From an uncultured Gammaproteobacteria bacterium (GTDB lineage Bacteria > Patescibacteriota > Patescibacteriia > Magasanikbacterales > UBA922): a DNA stretch of 64,000 bases. Positions 8,591 through 52,060 of the stretch are shown in pieces. Both the position numbers and the translations under genes were made by a program. The notes under the pieces were generated by a model. It was not told the origin of the DNA, searched no databases, and worked only from the letters and a program-made list of their open reading frames with translations. The DNA is taken from the NCBI GenBank assembly GCA_964612105.1, contig CAZTEU010000005.1, positions 45,039-109,038 on the forward strand, written 5' to 3'. Within the stretch, counting starts at the first letter, position 1; every line of letters begins with the position of its first letter.

Positions 8591-8679
8591 TAGACAAAAA
8601 GGTATGGGAGCGAACGAATCTTGTTTCTACGCCCCCTCAACCCCGCCCCAGATGGGACTAGTGTGGGACGGCGAGGCTA

Positions 8680-8916
8680 CTAACCCCTACTCGTGGTGTT
8701 GCTGTTCCAGACGAGGTCGAAGACCAGCGCCAGGAATAGGCTCATCGTGCAGATGCAGAACAGCACGATGCCGGTGTCGAACATCATGTGCTCGAAACCG
8801 TTCAGCCTGATACCATTGCAGCTGATGGCTGCACTTCGGTACATCGCGGATGCACCACCCACGATGAACAGAACTATGCAACCGATGAAGCAAGAACCAA
8901 ACAGCTTCCAGAACAT
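8680..8916 (-). CDS. small membrane protein (78 aa), island A gene 1
   Basis: Two hydrophobic helices; AAGGAGGGGAAA immediately upstream of ATG (rc of 8917-8932). Confidence 0.6.
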   Translation of the reverse strand: MFWKLFGSCFIGCIVLFIVGGASAMYRSAAISCNGIRLNGFEHMMFDTGIVLFCICTMSLFLALVFDLVWNSNTTSRG

Positions 8917-8990
8917 TTTCCCCTCCTTGAGGAATAGGTAACCTTACGGTCACCAGCGATAAGTACGTTCGCTCAACCTTTCTATCTAGT

Positions 8991-9040
8991 ATAGATTGTA
9001 AAGAGTTTTTGTTTTACCAAACAAAGAAGTGACGGGAGTG
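8991..9040 (+). repeat. intergenic repeat copy 1 (TTGTAAAGAGTTTTTGTTTT ... AAGAAGTGACGGGAGTGAA)
   Basis: Near-identical 20-mer plus related purine-rich 19-mer also at 9576-9628; third inverted partial copy at 9955-9975. Confidence 0.7.
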
Positions 9041-9084
9041 AATTGGATTCAGACTCGCCACCTCGCAGGCTCCTTCTCCTGCGA

Positions 9085-9498
9085 TCAGCGACGGCCCGTG
9101 TGTTGCTCGTCTGCGATCGTCGCCACCCCGGCGAACAGGATAGCGACACTGATGAGCCCAAGGATGGCCCACACCGTCGCCTCTGGATTCAGCACCATCT
9201 GGGCGCTGAATATTCCGCCGTACATGACGGCGGTGAAAACCATCCCAGCGAAGCTCGCCAACCAGACGAACATCCCCGTAACCAGGATTACCATCCCATC
9301 CCAGCGGGAGAAGGTCGACAGGTTGCAGATGCAACCCAAACCAGCCGCCACGAAGATGAAGGCGCCGATCAACAGCGCCAATGTCGCGAACTCGAGGAGG
9401 AACGGCAGGGTGAACACCCAGCCGAACACCTTCATGGCCACGCCCATGATGGTCGCGACTAGAGCCAAACTGACCGTCGGGATATCAAAGAAACGCAT
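9085..9498 (-). CDS. polytopic small membrane protein (137 aa), island A gene 2
   Basis: Four hydrophobic segments; CAAGGAGGAGAAAATG upstream. Confidence 0.6.
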   Translation of the reverse strand: MRFFDIPTVSLALVATIMGVAMKVFGWVFTLPFLLEFATLALLIGAFIFVAAGLGCICNLSTFSRWDGMVILVTGMFVWLASFAGMVFTAVMYGGIFSAQMVLNPEATVWAILGLISVAILFAGVATIADEQHTGRR

Positions 9499-9575
9499 TT
9501 TCTCCTCCTTGCTCGTCTACTGACGAGCTGTAGGCGTTTCGTCCAAAATTCACTCCACTTCTTTATTTGGTATAA

Positions 9576-9628
9576 GTTGTAAAGAGTTTTTGTTTTTCTA
9601 CTAAACAAGAAAGCGAGGAGGTGAACAT
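9576..9628 (+). repeat. intergenic repeat copy 2 (TTGTAAAGAGTTTTTGTTTTT ... AGAAAGCGAGGAGGTGAA)
   Basis: See copy 1. Confidence 0.7.
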
Positions 9629-9683
9629 AGTACGTTACAACCCCTCGCTGGAAACTGCTCCACAGGAAAAGGGTTGAAAGATC

Positions 9684-9920
9684 TCACTCGACGTCGTTGC
9701 ACACCGAGCGCACGGGCTCCTCATCGCTGTACCAGCCGAGGGGGGCTGCATAAACGACGAGGCCACCGATGCTCCCGAGGGAGGCCAGGGACAGACCCAG
9801 AATGGCCGTCTCCACCCGCCCCGCATCAGGGACGAGGAACAGGCCGGTGGCGAAGAGCCCCAGACCCACGAGGAGGAGGATGAAGAAACAGTGGGAATCA
9901 CGATCACGGCGACTACGCAT
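9684..9920 (-). CDS. small membrane protein (78 aa), island A gene 3
   Basis: Two hydrophobic helices; GGAG 8 nt upstream of ATG; TG-extended -10 promoter at 10027-10040. Confidence 0.5.
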   Translation of the reverse strand: MRSRRDRDSHCFFILLLVGLGLFATGLFLVPDAGRVETAILGLSLASLGSIGGLVVYAAPLGWYSDEEPVRSVCNDVE

Positions 9921-9954
9921 GGCAAACTCCAGCCTAGGTTACTTGAACGACGAT

Positions 9955-9975
9955 GTGTCGGACTTGTTCACCTCG
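9955..9975 (-). repeat. inverted partial repeat copy 3 (rc: AAGAAAGCGAGGTGAACA)
   Basis: Reverse complement matches purine-rich half of copy 2; lies about 40 nt upstream of island A gene 3. Confidence 0.6.
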
Positions 9976-10026
9976 CTTTCTTACTTAGTATATTTTAAGG
10001 TACTACTATCCTATTTTACCAACACA

Positions 10027-14495: not shown

Positions 14496-16206
14496 TATAA
14501 TAGCATCCAAGGGTTTGCTGTCATCCTTACTAAAAGGAAAGGTTGGTACTTTAGTTTTAACAAAGGCATTTGTTGCAGCCGGTCTTGGAGACATGGCTCC
14601 AATAGTTGCGCAGTTGATATCTCGAGATGGTGTATTAGATACATTACTCCCTGGTGTTCTGGCACAGGCTGATTCATACAGACAAAATGCGCAGGATTTT
14701 GTAAGAAATAAGTTTGCTTCTGTTGTAGAACCACCTGCTGGTGCATATGACCCAGGGCTTGCATATGCTGGAGGTCCACAAGAATTTGCTGTCGGTGATA
14801 GCTTCCTTAATGACGCAAAAAAACTTGCTAAGGAAAGCTCTGACTCTGTTAACAAGAATAAGCCAGTAGAATCTTCACCTGAAGTACAAAAAGATGATAT
14901 AATAGCTCCAGAAGCACAACCGCCGGTTGGTGGTGGTCTTGGTGGCGGAAAAACAACCCCTCAGGATGCACAAGAACAACAAGATAATGGTGTAGCGCCA
15001 GACAAATCACAGCAAGTTGGTTCACCAGATAAACAACCTCAAGAAGATGAGGAACAGGCACAGGAACCTGCTTCTAAGGAAAAGCCAGAGCCTAAACAAA
15101 AAGCTAGTGAAGGGCAAGCAAAAGGTGAAGATGCTCCCCAAATACCTATTAGTGTTACTCTGGATAAGCCTGAAGATAGTAGAACTATAAAACTAGATGA
15201 TGAAAGTGAGGGTGGAGCAGGGGGAGAACAGGCAGACGAGGTAGATCCAACAGAATCTCAACCTTCTGTATTAGATGATAAAGAACCCTCAGAAGAACCG
15301 GCTACAGAATCTCCTGAAGAGGGCGGTAAAGAAGGTGAGGAAATCCCCAAAACTAAAACACCAGAGGATAGAGAGAAAAAAGAAGAAGATGAAAAGGAGA
15401 AGGAAGATGATGAGGATAAAGAAGAAAGTGATAGTGATGAAGACGATGAGGATGAAGAAGGTACAGAAGAGGAAGATGATGGATTAGGTTTTGATAAACC
15501 AACAGATTTTAGCGCTCCCGCAGAAGACGATTCCTCTGGAGCAGAAGAGGAACAGAAAGACGATGATAAGAAAGATCCGGGGAAAGAAGCACAAACAGCA
15601 CAACAATTGAGTAAGGATAAGAATCTAGACGCAAAAGAGAAACGTGATAAGAAAGGAAAAGAATCCACTAAAGGTAAAGAAAAAAGACCGGATGCAGAAA
15701 GACATGGGTCATCTAGTAGCGTGATGGTTGTGCTATGGATGCTACACGATATAGTTGCTTTTGTTAACATGATTTTAATGTTAATTCCAGCACTAAATAT
15801 TTTGACCGGCTGGCTAGTCACACTGATGTTCCTTGGTCCAATACTATTTATGCCATTTGTAGACGGTGATATATTCTGGTTTACAGTTGCATATATAATA
15901 GGAAAAAGAACTCCTAGAGGGCCTGAGGATGAGAAGCAGAATGTTGTAGACAGATTCACAAAAGAAAAGAAAGAGCAGGTTGTAGACTTAGCAGAACAAG
16001 AAGGAAAGAGATTAGCAAAGGAGGCTATAAAGTCGTTGGGCTGGTATGCGCTAATAATACCTGGAATAATTATATTATTCCCTGTCGACTTAGTAATATA
16101 CTGGATAATCGTGATTAGATTTACAGCAGCAAAAAGGCCTACAGCTAAGAAATCAAAAGAGGTTGCATTCAGCATTCTAGAACAAGCAAAAATAGCAAAA
16201 AAATAA
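14479..16206 (+). CDS. hypothetical envelope protein with D/E/K-rich low-complexity centre and C-terminal TM helices
   Basis: 575 aa; about 200-aa acidic low-complexity tract (EEDEKEKEDDEDKEESDSDEDDEDEEG), three hydrophobic helices near C-terminus. Confidence 0.6.
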   Translation: MVLTPNIIASKGLLSSLLKGKVGTLVLTKAFVAAGLGDMAPIVAQLISRDGVLDTLLPGVLAQADSYRQNAQDFVRNKFASVVEPPAGAYDPGLAYAGGPQEFAVGDSFLNDAKKLAKESSDSVNKNKPVESSPEVQKDDIIAPEAQPPVGGGLGGGKTTPQDAQEQQDNGVAPDKSQQVGSPDKQPQEDEEQAQEPASKEKPEPKQKASEGQAKGEDAPQIPISVTLDKPEDSRTIKLDDESEGGAGGEQADEVDPTESQPSVLDDKEPSEEPATESPEEGGKEGEEIPKTKTPEDREKKEEDEKEKEDDEDKEESDSDEDDEDEEGTEEEDDGLGFDKPTDFSAPAEDDSSGAEEEQKDDDKKDPGKEAQTAQQLSKDKNLDAKEKRDKKGKESTKGKEKRPDAERHGSSSSVMVVLWMLHDIVAFVNMILMLIPALNILTGWLVTLMFLGPILFMPFVDGDIFWFTVAYIIGKRTPRGPEDEKQNVVDRFTKEKKEQVVDLAEQEGKRLAKEAIKSLGWYALIIPGIIILFPVDLVIYWIIVIRFTAAKRPTAKKSKEVAFSILEQAKIAKK

Positions 16207-16215
16207 ATAAAAAAT

Positions 16216-17451
16216 ATGGATAAAAAAAGAATCTTGTTTATCGTAGCATTCGTTATAGCAACAATAGTGATAGGCTTTGCTATGTATCGAGTGTTCTTTT
16301 ATACTCCAAAACCTGCAGAACGACCTGGAACTATTGCAACAGAACCATCCAAGTTCCCATCATCTGGAGAGGCAGGAGAAATAGACAGACCAACAATCCC
16401 ACCATCAGAAGTGTTACCTCCATCTGTCACAGCACCAAGTCAACCAGGAGTAGGTGATGGAATAGGAGTTGGAGAAGATGTACAAAAAATAGTGCAATCT
16501 GTTATAAACACACCTGTTGTTGGTATGGATATAAGTAATCAGAGTGGGCAGGCTAGATTCTATAACCAAGAAGACGGGAAGTTTTATTCTGTAGACGCAC
16601 TCGGACAACCAAGGGAACTAACAGACCAGGTTTTCTTTAACGTAGAAAATGTAACATGGTCCCCTACTCAAAGTGAGTCGATTATAGAATACCCAGACGG
16701 TGCAAATATTTATTATAATTTCAATACAAAAAAACAAGTTACATTACCAAAACACTGGGATTCTTTCTCATTTACAGATACAGGAGATAAAATAGCAGCA
16801 AAGAGTCTAGGGTTCTCTGAAGAAAACAGGTGGCTCATTAGTTCAGACCCAACAGGAAGTAATATAAACCTAATAGAGCCTCTTGGTAGTAACGCAGATA
16901 AAGTAATTGTAGACTGGTCTCCAAATAAACAGATTGTTGGGTTATCAGCTACTGGTGAAGAGCTTGGTTCTGATAGACAAGAGATATTATTTGTTGGACA
17001 GAATGGTGAGAATTTTAAATCAACAATAGTAGAAGGTAGAGATCTGAGGACAGAATGGTCAAAGACAGGTTCTAAACTATTGTACAGCGTTCATAATTCA
17101 CGAAATGATTTCAAGCCAGAGCTTTGGGTTGTAAAAGGTAGTGGAGAAAACTTGGGGGGAGGAAGAAAGCTACTTAATGTGGATACATGGGCAGATAAGT
17201 GTTCATTCTCAGATGATAGGTATGCCTATTGTGGAGTACCGCAAATACTAGAAAAAGGTTCTGGTTTTGCACCAGCCCTTGCGGACTCAACACCAGACGA
17301 CTTGTACAAGATAGATGTGGAGACAGGACTAAAGGTGCAAATACCTCTAGATGATTTCCATGTAATCGATACTATTTCATTAAGTCCGGACGGGAAGACA
17401 TTGTATTTTACAGACAAAAACATTCCAGGACTATATAAAGTACAGTTATAA
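16216..17451 (+). CDS. TolB-like beta-propeller (PD40/WD40-like) protein with N-terminal TM anchor
   Basis: N-terminal TM, Pro-rich linker, repeated ...W..SP.G..I.. propeller-like repeats, C-terminal LSPDGKTLYFTD. Confidence 0.6.
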   Translation: MDKKRILFIVAFVIATIVIGFAMYRVFFYTPKPAERPGTIATEPSKFPSSGEAGEIDRPTIPPSEVLPPSVTAPSQPGVGDGIGVGEDVQKIVQSVINTPVVGMDISNQSGQARFYNQEDGKFYSVDALGQPRELTDQVFFNVENVTWSPTQSESIIEYPDGANIYYNFNTKKQVTLPKHWDSFSFTDTGDKIAAKSLGFSEENRWLISSDPTGSNINLIEPLGSNADKVIVDWSPNKQIVGLSATGEELGSDRQEILFVGQNGENFKSTIVEGRDLRTEWSKTGSKLLYSVHNSRNDFKPELWVVKGSGENLGGGRKLLNVDTWADKCSFSDDRYAYCGVPQILEKGSGFAPALADSTPDDLYKIDVETGLKVQIPLDDFHVIDTISLSPDGKTLYFTDKNIPGLYKVQL

Positions 17452-21244: not shown

Positions 21245-21610
21245 ATTGACCGCCGACCCGCCCGAACCACTCAGAAGCAAGCTTCTTTGTGATCCGGACA
21301 GGTCAGACGTGTGAGACTGGTTGAGAACTACACCATACCAACGTGGGCATTGGAGATTCCGATGGAACCCCTGATGATCTGGCCAGACGCTGTGAGGTTG
21401 TAGTTGGAACAGGCACGAACATACCCGCGGTAATTCTCACGGTCATCTTCCGTGCGATTACCGCTCAGAATCCACCTCGCGTAGTCCTGAGGGATTCTGT
21501 GCTCAACACGGAGCCTGGCAACAATCTGTCGCCCCTGTGAAAATTCGCTCTGATGGACACTCATGCTCTCTTTCCTCCTGTTTAGGGGTATTTACCCCTA
21601 AGAAATTGAA
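21245..21610. other. GC-rich micro-island B
   Basis: 60-nt sample 21251-21310 counts 36/60 G+C versus 20/60 in adjacent recG 3' end; flanked by hairpins CCACCTTGTGGGTGG and AGGGGTATTTACCCCT. Confidence 0.7.
21328..21564 (-). CDS. hypothetical 78-aa protein, island B
   Basis: CAGGAGGAAAGAGAGCATG upstream; no recognised domain. Confidence 0.5.
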   Translation of the reverse strand: MSVHQSEFSQGRQIVARLRVEHRIPQDYARWILSGNRTEDDRENYRGYVRACSNYNLTASGQIIRGSIGISNAHVGMV

Positions 21611-33569: not shown

Positions 33570-33600
33570 ATCATGTACACAAAAGCCCCCATAAACTGGG
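33570..33600. terminator. terminator AAAAGCCCCCATAAACTGGGGGCGTTT
   Basis: 6-bp GC stem after topA stop. Confidence 0.7.
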
Positions 33601-33869
33601 GGCGTTTGTGTAGCGGAGAGGAGGTAACCTCAATGCCTGTGGTAATATAAAGGCCCTCAACCCGCTACAAAATACAGGATATCAGAAAAAAGGAGAAAAT
33701 ACAAGAAAAAGAAAAGTCCCGAATAATTTCGGGATTTTTCTCGGCCTTGGGATTACCCTACCTCTATATTACCTACGGACAATTATAGCAATAAAATATA
33801 GATTTGTCAAGTAGGAGTGTAAATAAATCGGAAAAATAAAAAATCATCCTTTTTTAGGATGAATCGTTT

Positions 33870-35060
33870 CACCCTGCCCAGCGTTTCTTGCTGAGCAGGG
33901 TGTGCCTCCTTTTTTGGTAAGGTCATGAGAGACCGAGTGTCCGAGGAACCAAGTTCCACTACCCGAGAGCCAAGGAACCTAGCATCCTAGGGCTGACGCT
34001 TGCTACGGACGAGAAAACGAGAGCGGTCACCCCAGCCGCCGTCAAACCAGCGGAGATAAGTTAAGAGGTGCTGACCGTTGCCGTCGCTCCAGACACACGG
34101 GCAGCCCCGGTCACCGTTCAGGTCCTGCCAGACGCTTCCGAGCGCGACCAGTGGCCATTCCAGACCGACTTCTTGATGTTCGGCGCAGTATACGAGCAAA
34201 TCGCGCAACGAGGCGACCTCGTAGCCTTGTTTCTTGATCTCATCCAGCACTGCTGTGGTGTGCAAACGCTTGTTGAAATGCAAAACCTCGAGACTGTACT
34301 CGTAGTCAGGCTGGTCATCCGGAAGGGGGAAATTCTCGGTAGTGATGTTATATTCGACGTAACCGAACCCACATGCCCCAATGAGCTGTTGTAATTCATC
34401 CGGAGAGGTCTCTTCATCAGAAACGGTCTTCTTACGACGGACCAGGAAACGGTAGTAGTTGATCCACCTGCTCTCAAGCCAGTCGAAATCCAGACGCCGA
34501 CCGTTTCTATCACGCCAGACAAACGGACAACACTGGCCACCGTGCACATTCTGCCAAGTACTCCCGAGTGCGGACAATGGCCAGTCCAGGCCGACTTTGG
34601 AATGTTCGGCGCAGTATACGAGCAAATCGCGCAACGAGGCGACCTCGTAGCCCTGCTTCTTGATCTCATCCAGCACTTCCGTGGTGGTCAGACCCTTGTT
34701 GAGGTGCAGAACCTCGAGACTGTACTCGTAGTCAGGCTGGTCATCCTCGAGCGGGAATTTCTCGCCCATGATGTTATCATCCACTGAGTGGAACTTGCAT
34801 GCTCCAATGAGCTGTTGCAGTTCGTCCGAGATAGGCACTTCGACCAGCTTGTCGAACCGCCCTTCCACAATCGCTTGGAGCGCTTTTTTGACCAGAGCTG
34901 GGTCGTACGGGCACCCCCTCTTCTGCCGAAGCAACCTCTTGATCTCGTGGAGCTGACCATCAATCTCGAAATACAGATCGCCTGCAACGCTAAACGCCAT
35001 GACAATCTCCTCTTTTCTAAGCTACAAATGCCAACGCACTCGCGCCAACACTCTTGCCTG
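33870..35060. other. GC-rich micro-island D
   Basis: Sharp compositional shift; single long minus-strand ORF with RBS, multiple overlapping antisense ORFs typical of high-GC DNA. Confidence 0.7.
33987..35000 (-). CDS. hypothetical 337-aa protein built from two tandem ~150-aa repeats (unrecognised domain), island D
   Basis: AAGAGGAGA upstream of ATG; internal repeat SDELQQLIGAC.F...DDQPDYEYSLEVLH.NK..TT.VLDEIKKQGYEVASLRDLLVYCAEH..VGL.WPL.ALGS.WQ....G..CP.VW.D.NG present twice. Confidence 0.6.
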   Translation of the reverse strand: MAFSVAGDLYFEIDGQLHEIKRLLRQKRGCPYDPALVKKALQAIVEGRFDKLVEVPISDELQQLIGACKFHSVDDNIMGEKFPLEDDQPDYEYSLEVLHLNKGLTTTEVLDEIKKQGYEVASLRDLLVYCAEHSKVGLDWPLSALGSTWQNVHGGQCCPFVWRDRNGRRLDFDWLESRWINYYRFLVRRKKTVSDEETSPDELQQLIGACGFGYVEYNITTENFPLPDDQPDYEYSLEVLHFNKRLHTTAVLDEIKKQGYEVASLRDLLVYCAEHQEVGLEWPLVALGSVWQDLNGDRGCPCVWSDGNGQHLLTYLRWFDGGWGDRSRFLVRSKRQP

Positions 35061-35157
35061 TTTTGGAACTGGATAAAGCATACCAAAATATCACTATATG
35101 TCAAGTATGGTGCTAGAACTTGCCAAAATAGTAAAAAATGGTTAAAGTAAATGGGCT

Positions 35158-43436: not shown

Positions 43437-43799
43437 ATGGCATCTAGACAGTATGAGTTTTTGGACAAGACCGGAGAGACTTGGTACCACATCGTAGAAG
43501 GTATGTGTCCCGGCATTTGGGACCTGATTATCAACTCACTTGTGCGCGGTAACCAGTGCACTGTGATAATCTACACCCAAAGCCAAGCCTCTGGACAAAG
43601 ACTGGGCATCGAGCTGACACACCTGAAGAGTGTCACCAACCTCACGTCGTACGTCGACAAAGAGTGCGAAGAGTGGGCACTCGTTGCAACAACCCCGTGG
43701 AACTGGGTAACCGTGCGGTTCAACACCAAGACGCGACATGGACGCCTCCGGTTCCTGACGAAAGAGGAAGAGAGGGTGTGCACCACGCTCATGGAGTAG
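43437..43799 (+). CDS. hypothetical 120-aa protein, island E (start at MASRQYEF after AAGGAGG)
   Basis: CAAGGAGGTGTCGTTATG; ORF track's longer 43308 start lacks RBS. Confidence 0.5.
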   Translation: MASRQYEFLDKTGETWYHIVEGMCPGIWDLIINSLVRGNQCTVIIYTQSQASGQRLGIELTHLKSVTNLTSYVDKECEEWALVATTPWNWVTVRFNTKTRHGRLRFLTKEEERVCTTLME

Positions 43800-43868: not shown

Positions 43869-45641
43869 TTATTTCTTTTTCTCTTTTCTTTTCTCTAAAC
43901 CTAACTCTTCCAACTGTTCTTTGTCTACCTCTGCAGGACTTCCCATCATTGGTTCTTCTGCTTTCTGGTTTTTAGGGAATGGCACAACAGAACGGATATT
44001 GTTTTCTCCAAGTAGTAACATTGCCAATCTTTCTATTCCAGGTGCAAAACCGCAATGAGGAGGTGCTCCATATTCAAAAGCATCTATCATGTGTCCAAAC
44101 TTTTTGTCTACATCATCTTTGGAATAACCTGCAATTTCAAAAGCTTTGTACATAATCTCCGGATCCTTGTTTCGTACAGCTCCAGATGATAATTCTAATC
44201 CGTTTGCAATAATATCATACTGATAACCCAGTATATCCAATGGGTCTTTATTTTCTAGCGCCTCCATTCCACCTTGTGGCATAGAGAATGGATTATGACT
44301 AAAGTCTATCTTGCCTGTTTCTTTGTCTTTTTCATACATTGGAAAATCTACAATCCAAGCCCACGCAATCATGTTTGGATCTGCTAGTTCCATGTTCTTT
44401 CCAACAAGATGACGAACAGCACCTAGTGCTTCACAACTCACCTTCCAACTGTCTGCAACAAAAAACACAATACTCCCCTCCTCTGGTTCTAATCTTTCTT
44501 GTAAGTCATTTAATGCTACGCCTGTAAAGAGTTTCTTAATTGGTCCACTAAATCCACCATGCTCGAATTTCATCCAAGCAAGACCTTTTGCATGATTTCG
44601 CTTTGCTACATCTTCATATTCATCAGTTATATCTTTTCTAGAAAATGAAGCTCCACCTGGAACATACAATGCTTTTATACTCTCTGCTTCTTTAAAAATA
44701 TTAAAATCTGTTGCATTTCCCCAGTCTGTAAGATCTATTAGTTCCAAATCGTAACGCAAGTCTGGACGATCTGAACCATATCTGTCCATTATTTCTGTAA
44801 ATGCTAACCGAGGTATTTTTTTATCTTTTAATTTCTTTTTAGCAACCTTCGTTGTAAGTTCTATAAAAAGAGGTTCCATTAAATCGAAAAACTCATCCTG
44901 TGTCATAAAGCTTACTTCACAATCTAGCTGATAAAACTCTCCTGGCGAACGGTCTGCTCGCGGATCTTCGTCTCTCATACAAGGCGCAATCTGATAATAT
45001 TTATCAAAACCTGCAACCATTAGTAATTGCTTGTATTGTTGAGGCGCCTGAGGCAGAGCATAAAATTTTCCTGGATGAATTCTACTTGGAACCAAAAAAT
45101 CTCTAGCACCTTCTGGAGAGCTCACTGTAAGAAGAGGTGTGGCAATATTTATGAAATCATTCTTTTCCATATAATTGCGAATATGCTTTTCCATTTTCGA
45201 TCGAAACAATACGTTATTCTTCAACTTCTCACGTCGCAATTCAAGGAAACGATACTTTAGACGCAACTCCTCTTCCTCTTCACCCTTACCAGAGTCGAAA
45301 ATCTCAAACGGCATTGTTTTTGCCTCACTTAAAATCTCTAGCTCGCTAGCTAAAACTTCAATCTCTCCTGTTTTTAATTTTTTATTTACTGTTTTTGAAT
45401 CTCTTTTTACAACCTTTCCAGTAATTTTTATTATAAATTCATATTTTAAAGTCTCTGCCAAACCAAAGTCTGATACTTTGTCAGGATTAAATACAACCTG
45501 AGTAATTCCATAGCGATCTCTTAAATCAACAAAAATAAGACCACCTAGGTCTCTGCGCTTATGCACCCATCCGGCCAAAGAAACCTCTTTGCCTGTGTTT
45601 TTTTTGCTTAATTCTGCGCAATTGTGAGTTCTATATGACAT
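43869..45641 (-). CDS. aspS: aspartate--tRNA ligase (bacterial type with GAD insertion)
   Basis: 590 aa, anticodon-binding OB fold N-terminus, class II motifs, FRDE/GGSIR-type region. Confidence 0.9.
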   Translation of the reverse strand: MSYRTHNCAELSKKNTGKEVSLAGWVHKRRDLGGLIFVDLRDRYGITQVVFNPDKVSDFGLAETLKYEFIIKITGKVVKRDSKTVNKKLKTGEIEVLASELEILSEAKTMPFEIFDSGKGEEEEELRLKYRFLELRREKLKNNVLFRSKMEKHIRNYMEKNDFINIATPLLTVSSPEGARDFLVPSRIHPGKFYALPQAPQQYKQLLMVAGFDKYYQIAPCMRDEDPRADRSPGEFYQLDCEVSFMTQDEFFDLMEPLFIELTTKVAKKKLKDKKIPRLAFTEIMDRYGSDRPDLRYDLELIDLTDWGNATDFNIFKEAESIKALYVPGGASFSRKDITDEYEDVAKRNHAKGLAWMKFEHGGFSGPIKKLFTGVALNDLQERLEPEEGSIVFFVADSWKVSCEALGAVRHLVGKNMELADPNMIAWAWIVDFPMYEKDKETGKIDFSHNPFSMPQGGMEALENKDPLDILGYQYDIIANGLELSSGAVRNKDPEIMYKAFEIAGYSKDDVDKKFGHMIDAFEYGAPPHCGFAPGIERLAMLLLGENNIRSVVPFPKNQKAEEPMMGSPAEVDKEQLEELGLEKRKEKKK

Positions 45642-51489: not shown

Positions 51490-52060
51490 TAGCAAAACAA
51501 AAAAACACCATATTAGTGTTCTTTTGAATTGGGCCGAGATTTTGTATAGGTACTCGGCCGTTTAACCTATGTTGTCGTACTCCCCTTACTCGGTAGGCAT
51601 CTCGACATCGCTGACGTCGACACCTAGAGCCAAGGCGCATACTTGGTAGTCCGCGACGCGATTCTGGTAGATCGACCCTCCAACGCATCGCACGAAGCGC
51701 GTAACGAAGTCCTTGAACCCGTGGTCCAGGTCCATGGCAGTACAGATGATGTGAGATGCCGCATACCTGAAGTCTTCGTCGACCATACCATACATGAAGT
51801 TCTGCAGGGCACTCTCGCAGAGTCCACCACACAGTGAGTCAGCCAGAGGGATGTCCTTCCAGGCGATGTAGGTACGGTTATTGTAGCCACGTTCCTCGTG
51901 AAAGAGTGTTTCATATGAGACCCCCTTCTCTTGAATCGCCGCTTTATTGAGGAGCCAAACCTTCAGACACTTGCTGACCTGGGCTTGCAGATACTGATTC
52001 ATTTCCATCTCCTTGTAAAGAGCCTCTATTTTGTCCTCCACCACGCCTTTTTGTGATTTC
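51490..52060. other. GC-rich micro-island F
   Basis: Compositional shift bounded by hairpins (AACACCATATTAGTGTT, GGCCGAG...CTCGGCC). Confidence 0.65.
51586..52002 (-). CDS. hypothetical 138-aa Cys-containing protein, island F (start at MNQYLQ after AAGGAG)
   Basis: CAAGGAGATGGAAATG; ORF track GTG start further upstream lacks RBS. Confidence 0.5.
   Translation of the reverse strand: MNQYLQAQVSKCLKVWLLNKAAIQEKGVSYETLFHEERGYNNRTYIAWKDIPLADSLCGGLCESALQNFMYGMVDEDFRYAASHIICTAMDLDHGFKDFVTRFVRCVGGSIYQNRVADYQVCALALGVDVSDVEMPTE

Follow-up and report, generated by a model that had tools for sequence, protein, structure and literature searches.

What kind of protein is encoded by a single GC-rich gene that lies between housekeeping genes and is built from two copies of a module matching no described family? 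We address this question for the 64,000-nt stretch spanning positions 45,039 to 109,038 of contig CAZTEU010000005.1 (GenBank assembly GCA_964612105.1), hereafter the window, whose minus strand carries at 33987-35000 an open reading frame (ORF) of 337 amino acids (aa), P0001. An earlier note, drawn up from the letters alone, had described its product as two tandem repeats of an unrecognised Cys/Trp-rich domain, perhaps of a ligand-binding or immunity type. The domain does not stand alone: its family, which numbers thousands of members and has a C-type-lectin fold, is a target of diversity-generating retroelements (DGRs). We consider, with a probability of roughly 0.6, that the window gene encodes a DGR-type binding protein that has been duplicated and is static at present (orphaned or domesticated).

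The protein can be divided into a short N-terminal domain and two modules, each of which contains a segment equivalent to the variable repeat (VR) of DGR targets:

33987..35000, minus strand: ORF P0001, 337 aa, ATG start, N-terminal helical domain followed by two modules of predicted C-type-lectin fold
34848..35000, minus strand: N-terminal domain of about 51 aa, 'AGDLYxEIxGQLHEIKRxLRQ..G.PYDP..LQ..IEG.F', two helices in the structural model with low predicted local distance difference test (pLDDT) values
34425..34847, minus strand: module 1 (aa 52-192), predicted C-type-lectin fold
34428..34571, minus strand: VR-equivalent segment of module 1 (ALGS..W...RFLVRRK), homologous to the VR of the relative P0166 and others
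33990..34421, minus strand: module 2 (aa 194-337), predicted C-type-lectin fold, profile match 2e-49, secondary structure as in module 1 in the full-length model
33999..34145, minus strand: VR-equivalent segment of module 2, at the 3' end of the gene, with the same homology as that of module 1

The original proposal of a genuine gene in which one module occurs twice in tandem is borne out by an internal direct repeat (300 nt, 80% nucleotide identity, 426-nt spacing), by the alignment of the two modules of about 140 aa each (67% aa identity, E=1e-63) and by the match of each of them to the family profile described below at about 1e-49. No other ORF of the window, including the overlapping plus-strand ORFs, matches this profile; the minus-strand frame alone does. 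The duplication had also been called old. This appears doubtful because nucleotide identity in the module centres reaches 92-97% (a 145-nt stretch being 92% identical), and the duplication is either not evidently old or the copies have been homogenised. At the same locus in assembly SCRA20-1 (scaffold_7531, L016 1895-2482), the 195-aa single-module form P0002 is a chimera that matches exactly the first half of module 1 followed by the second half of module 2, and represents either a real deletion allele that arose when the repeats recombined or a collapse in the assembly; on this contig topA is also fragmented.

The failure to assign the module to a family stood up to further searches. The window gene gave no meaningful match in Pfam, PHROGs or PDB sequence searches, and the Pfam models Lectin_C and FGE-sulfatase did not match its product even at E≤10. 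Ten family members returned no Pfam match to the module (none from Lectin_C or FGE-sulfatase at E≤0.01), eight members returned no match from NCBIfam or PADLOC, and the family profile matched no PDB sequence. A word-indexed search of 5.8 billion proteins with the single protein yielded five hits only, P0001-P0005, among which P0004 and P0005 are single-module proteins of about 200 aa. The reading of these five hits as a rare family was rejected as a sensitivity artefact, since an exhaustive HMMER search with a profile built from seven modules retrieved 6,358 cluster representatives at E≤1e-3, a number that falls to 3,686 at E≤1e-10. Most of these are proteins of about 200 aa with one module, that is, the single-domain relatives which the earlier note had suggested looking for.

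Among the best 153 representatives, the module of about 138 aa is found at the C-terminus in nearly all cases, with RF(A/L)(A/V)VRK as its end; 126 of the proteins have a single copy, 23 have two and 4 have three, placed behind N-termini of many unrelated short helical types. The 'AGDLY' N-terminal domain of the window protein is common to P0002, P0004, P0005 and 27 of the 153 representatives. Hardly any variation is seen at F, L-G-S, R, W and R-F, and the scaffold residues of the family are all conserved in the window gene. The earlier label of Cys/Trp-rich does not describe a family signature: the cysteines are kept between the two window modules and a paralogue, P0003, but they are a trait of this sub-branch and are not conserved in the wider family.

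An AlphaFold2 model of residues 1-195, computed from a 42-sequence alignment, had a mean pLDDT of 80.8, exceeding 90 over most of the module. Foldseek, likewise suggested at the outset, returned C-type lectin-like domains for all of the top 50 PDB matches (E 0.03-0.3, probability up to 0.96), including TvpA and Mtd, and the BFVD viral library gave the same weak C-type-lectin matches. In a model of the full-length protein (pLDDT 76, predicted template-modelling score 0.56) both modules display the same secondary-structure pattern, their mutual arrangement being uncertain. The module, as modelled, carries a C-type-lectin fold, in keeping with published work. Several VR classes of candidate phyla radiation (CPR) bacteria are without fold assignment in Wu et al. 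2018 (PMC5758913).

The neighbourhood of relatives tied the family to DGRs. Directly downstream of the gene of P0166 are a bAvd gene and an RVT_1 reverse transcriptase (RT) gene, and a second copy of the last 141 nt of the P0166 gene, 85% identical, is found 498 nt downstream; within the repeat, every mismatch corresponds to an adenine in the downstream copy. This adenine-only pattern is the defining signature of a DGR pair of template repeat (TR) and VR. Scanning species-representative genomes with a closer subset of the family alignment, we recovered 46 family loci, mostly from metagenome-assembled genomes (MAGs) of Patescibacteria. Avd (on the opposite strand) and/or RT genes were found directly downstream in about 20 of the 46, and a template repeat follows the gene at 350-400 nt in at least 17, with mismatches solely or almost solely at adenines (e.g. 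20/20, 18/18, 18/18 and 24/24). Target, TR, opposite-strand Avd and RT follow one another in this order, and the VR of DGR-linked members comprises the C-terminal 45 codons or so. Two or three tandem paralogous family genes occur at some loci (L022 8513-10411; L046 9577-9765; L007 9052-9681), where adenine-specific mismatches are confined to the copy nearest the template. A family gene with no local DGR (L056 1455-1838) matches the TR of a locus on another contig of the same MAG, H41-bin111_1 (L042 10754-10881), 26 of the 27 mismatches falling on adenines of the template, and remote targets therefore occur in the family; L042 holds two Avd/RT pairs.

We conclude that many family members are genuine DGR targets. 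Because its relatives are DGR targets and its model matches the C-type-lectin fold, each module of the window protein can be read as a DGR variable-protein domain, the most diverged part of which would be the VR-equivalent binding surface.

Whether the window gene itself is currently rewritten was examined at several levels. By tblastn with an RT and an Avd query from a family locus, neither RT nor Avd was detected in the window (best E 1.7), and RT, Avd and any template-like copy were absent from 10-kb extensions past both window ends and from the 17-kb locus of P0003. No second copy of either VR-equivalent segment was present in the window or in L001/L002/L008/L068-L071, about 110 kb in total. 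A profile of the family-linked RTs gave at least 8,000 hits, with none on the 390,833-bp contig of the window among the 120 matches listed. The identical P0001 protein recurred on at least 21 contigs drawn from many samples, in each case within the relA/spoT-topA interval, and no VR variants of it were present among the 5.8 billion proteins, in which its 90% cluster has one member and the assemblies give the consensus only. A degenerate template pattern ('VR base or A') had 0 hits in a metagenome contig collection from which the window gene itself is also absent.

The two VR-equivalent segments are the most diverged part between the modules, with 25 of 48 aa differing as against 17 of 85 in the scaffold. 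At the nucleotide level they differ at each of the three codon positions and by an indel of 6 nt; a DGR-like pattern restricted to codon positions 1 and 2 was accordingly rejected, and the segments do not have the look of recent adenine mutagenesis. Since these segments are the most diverged parts, each module probably has its own fixed binding specificity. P0003, the 315-aa two-module paralogue, is encoded on the same contig about 21 kb past the 3' end of the window, between uvrD and ndk (L001/L002 8001-8948), with 49% identity to the window protein and a GC content of about 52%; its N-terminus is unlike that of the window gene, it shares the downstream hairpin and terminator, and only one variant of it was found, with a single V/L difference. 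A GC-rich ORF of 102 aa follows it (L001 9927-10235). We favour the static reading because no DGR machinery or template is present in about 110 kb and no protein variants are on record, from which we infer a lack of current diversification in the window gene.

The rival that survives best, possible although distinctly less probable than a static gene, is an active remote target: a TR/Avd/RT cassette elsewhere in the genome would rewrite 33999-34145, aided in target recognition by a motif array directly behind the stop codon. Remote targeting is known in the family from the L056/L042 pair, and DGRs are enriched in CPR genomes (PMC8144416). The absence of RT, Avd and TR from the window, its extensions and the paralogue locus, the absence of VR variants despite at least 21 assemblies of the locus, and the differences on all three codon positions with an indel, unlike fresh adenine mutagenesis, argue against it. 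The array in question is the following:

33933..33986, minus strand: six or seven CTYGG motifs spaced by 8 nt, directly after the stop codon

It reads GATGCTAGG TTCCTTGG CTCTCGG GTAGTGG AACTTGG TTCCTCGG ACACTCGG, with six CTYGG motifs in 70 nt against 0.18 expected, and is the sole such cluster in the 64 kb. In most family loci the stop codon is directly followed by 3-8 copies of a CTTGG-type motif (CTYGG, CTTTGG): across 35 loci, such motifs averaged 2.6 per 70 nt against 0.27 expected, with three or more in 18 of the 35. The modal spacing is exactly 8 nt (33 of 64 intervals), intervals of 15-16 and 24 nt recur, and a strong hairpin follows the array in family loci. The window gene thus retains a full array where genuine targets have one; P0003 is without the array of about 50 nt. 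No such array follows the template repeats, and its presence therefore marks the VR side as opposed to the TR side, a further point in favour of remote targeting. In the DGR of the Bordetella phage, the IMH sequence (for 'initiation of mutagenic homing') and a cruciform lie on the VR side (PMC5758913, PMC3240598) and set it apart from the TR side, as the CTYGG array does here. A full-text literature search returned no description of it. The array may take part in DGR target recognition. The stronger, twofold proposition, that it is the target-recognition signal of this DGR clade, the functional counterpart of IMH plus cruciform, and that the window gene is a live remote target whose binding surface is being rewritten from a DGR at another place in the genome, we regard as rather unlikely.

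A third explanation, which we hold to be improbable, is that of a recently imported passenger gene that has no function in this host or is decaying. It would account for a single-gene islet of 54% GC between housekeeping genes in a 38% GC genome, and high GC had been taken at first sight to mark the gene as foreign. The excess is real (0.54-0.60 across the ORF against 0.378 for the whole window), but in 22 of 29 loci the family modules exceed the sequence flanking them in GC (by a median of +10 points and up to +23), which makes GC a weak mark of foreignness: high GC is a family trait and alone no proof of recent import. The frame is moreover intact, with every scaffold residue conserved, the identical protein recurs across many samples, a second intact paralogue is present in the same genome, and the gene is equipped with its own promoter-like site, a strong Shine-Dalgarno sequence and a terminator:

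35077..35104, minus strand: promoter-like TTGACA-N16-TATGCT with TG extension, upstream of the gene, 10/12 matches, identified by consensus match only
35006..35014, minus strand: Shine-Dalgarno sequence AAGAGGAGA, 5 nt ahead of the ATG, read from the sequence
33870..33902, minus strand: hairpin CACCCTGCTCAG...CTGGGCAGGGTG in the 3' untranslated region, also present at P0003
33834..33862, minus strand: intrinsic-terminator-like hairpin and T-run, homologous to the terminator behind P0003

The ribosome-binding site is the one originally claimed (35014..35006), and the putative promoter is present albeit at 35104..35077, slightly off the position of 35095-35125 first given to it. The terminator-like element, its hairpin and T-run also being placed at 33862..33844, is the likely 3' edge of the GC-rich island.

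The remaining alternative, that the protein acts as an immunity factor or antitoxin within a polymorphic-toxin locus or another conflict locus of that sort, is very improbable: the gene is small, repeated and GC-atypical, has few close relatives by word-based search, and a relative, P0004, is encoded near type I restriction-modification and CBASS systems, but around the window gene lie topA, relA/spoT and parB and no toxin gene, its paralogue lies between uvrD and ndk, PADLOC gave no hits, the C-type-lectin fold is no known immunity fold and the family is tied to DGR cassettes. Of the two functions first proposed for the domain, ligand binding is thus the most likely, and a toxin/immunity role finds no support beside housekeeping neighbours and a C-type-lectin fold. 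At its own locus (L007), P0004 adjoins a paralogue as well as the restriction-modification system and the CBASS operon (CD-NTase and Cap15).

Returning to a static DGR-type binding protein, we propose the following mode of action. The window gene would be expressed from its own promoter, Shine-Dalgarno sequence and terminator as a cytoplasm-type protein, consisting of two tandem ligand-binding modules of C-type-lectin fold behind a small helical adaptor domain at the N-terminus. No signal peptide, membrane segment or other hydrophobic segment is visible in its sequence, which suggests that it is not Sec-secreted. In DGR-linked members, the Avd/RT pair rewrites the last 45 or so codons (from ALGSxW to RFxxVRK) from the template, with changes at template adenines, thereby varying the binding surface while the scaffold stays constant. 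Each module of the window protein may bind a ligand through the surface formed by its VR-equivalent residues, the tandem arrangement providing two fixed specificities or a higher avidity, and the N-terminal helical domain may couple the binder to a partner.

The window gene belongs to a known kind, the C-type-lectin-fold DGR variable proteins of CPR bacteria, of which this family is one without a curated model. Mtd of Bordetella phage BPP-1 (PDB 1yu0) and TvpA of Treponema denticola (PDB 2y3c) are DGR variable proteins with the same fold; at the sequence level no similarity was detectable between the module described here and Mtd, TvpA or FGE-type domains, and the module is much smaller (about 140 aa). 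In contrast to Mtd and TvpA, family members are generally without signal peptides, and the window gene consists of two modules with no DGR within about 110 kb. The family resembles the CPR DGR targets that Roux et al. 2021 (PMC8144416) place in 'clade 2' and the VR classes that are ungrouped or UVR in the CPR set of Wu et al. 2018 (PMC5758913) in its occurrence mostly in Patescibacteria MAGs, in having no recognisable Pfam or transmembrane domain and in the order target, TR, opposite-strand Avd and RT; the fold, left open there, is modelled here as a C-type lectin. Canonical C-type lectin-like and FGE/sulfatase-modifying-factor domains have the same overall fold as the module, but the corresponding Pfam models, Lectin_C and FGE-sulfatase, do not match it and the disulfide cysteines are not conserved in the family.

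Several other features were observed around the gene, whose neighbours topA, relA/spoT and parB were established from the window annotation and from contigs with the identical protein. Other short GC-rich islets (0.49-0.54 against 0.38) lie between housekeeping genes at 8600-10000, 21328-21564 (minus strand), 43437-43799 (plus strand) and 51586-52044 (minus strand), each with at least one small ORF; the first contains three predicted membrane ORFs (8680-8916, 9085-9498 and 9684-9920, minus strand). The ORFs of these islets were rejected as family members, as they matched neither the family profile nor Pfam, and the islets were rejected as RNA genes, as Rfam and ARAGORN gave two tRNAs only, both elsewhere. 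On the minus strand at 33810..33782 there is a perfect sigma-70 consensus promoter (TTGACA-N17-TATAAT with TG, 12/12), 3' of which about 200 nt of non-coding sequence fold far better than shuffled versions (minimum free energy -82 kcal/mol, z = -7.6), contain an internal terminator-like hairpin at 33734..33717 and end in a bidirectional terminator common to topA (33585-33603). The interval 33575-33810 (minus strand) is therefore a candidate for a structured small RNA, with no Rfam match. Beyond the window edges, dnaE carries an intein containing a LAGLIDADG domain (L068 5126-9895), and L070 harbours a free-standing LAGLIDADG ORF upstream of tuf and a ribosomal protein operon (1505-2092 and 16145-17206). 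In this operon S5 is directly followed by L15, without L30, an order consistent with a Patescibacteria (CPR) genome.

What had been an unrecognised Cys/Trp domain is now a compact (about 140 aa) C-type-lectin-fold hypermutation target of a mostly Patescibacteria DGR clade. The family, which is thousands strong and has neither a Pfam nor an NCBIfam model, escapes routine annotation; with a curated model, many hypothetical proteins of CPR genomes would receive a label. The occurrence of duplicated modules with no DGR in about 110 kb bears on the domestication of DGR targets or on their service in trans. The VR-side CTYGG array is a concrete candidate for a part in the poorly understood target-recognition step of DGR retrohoming and, if it does act there, could predict remote DGR targets genome-wide.
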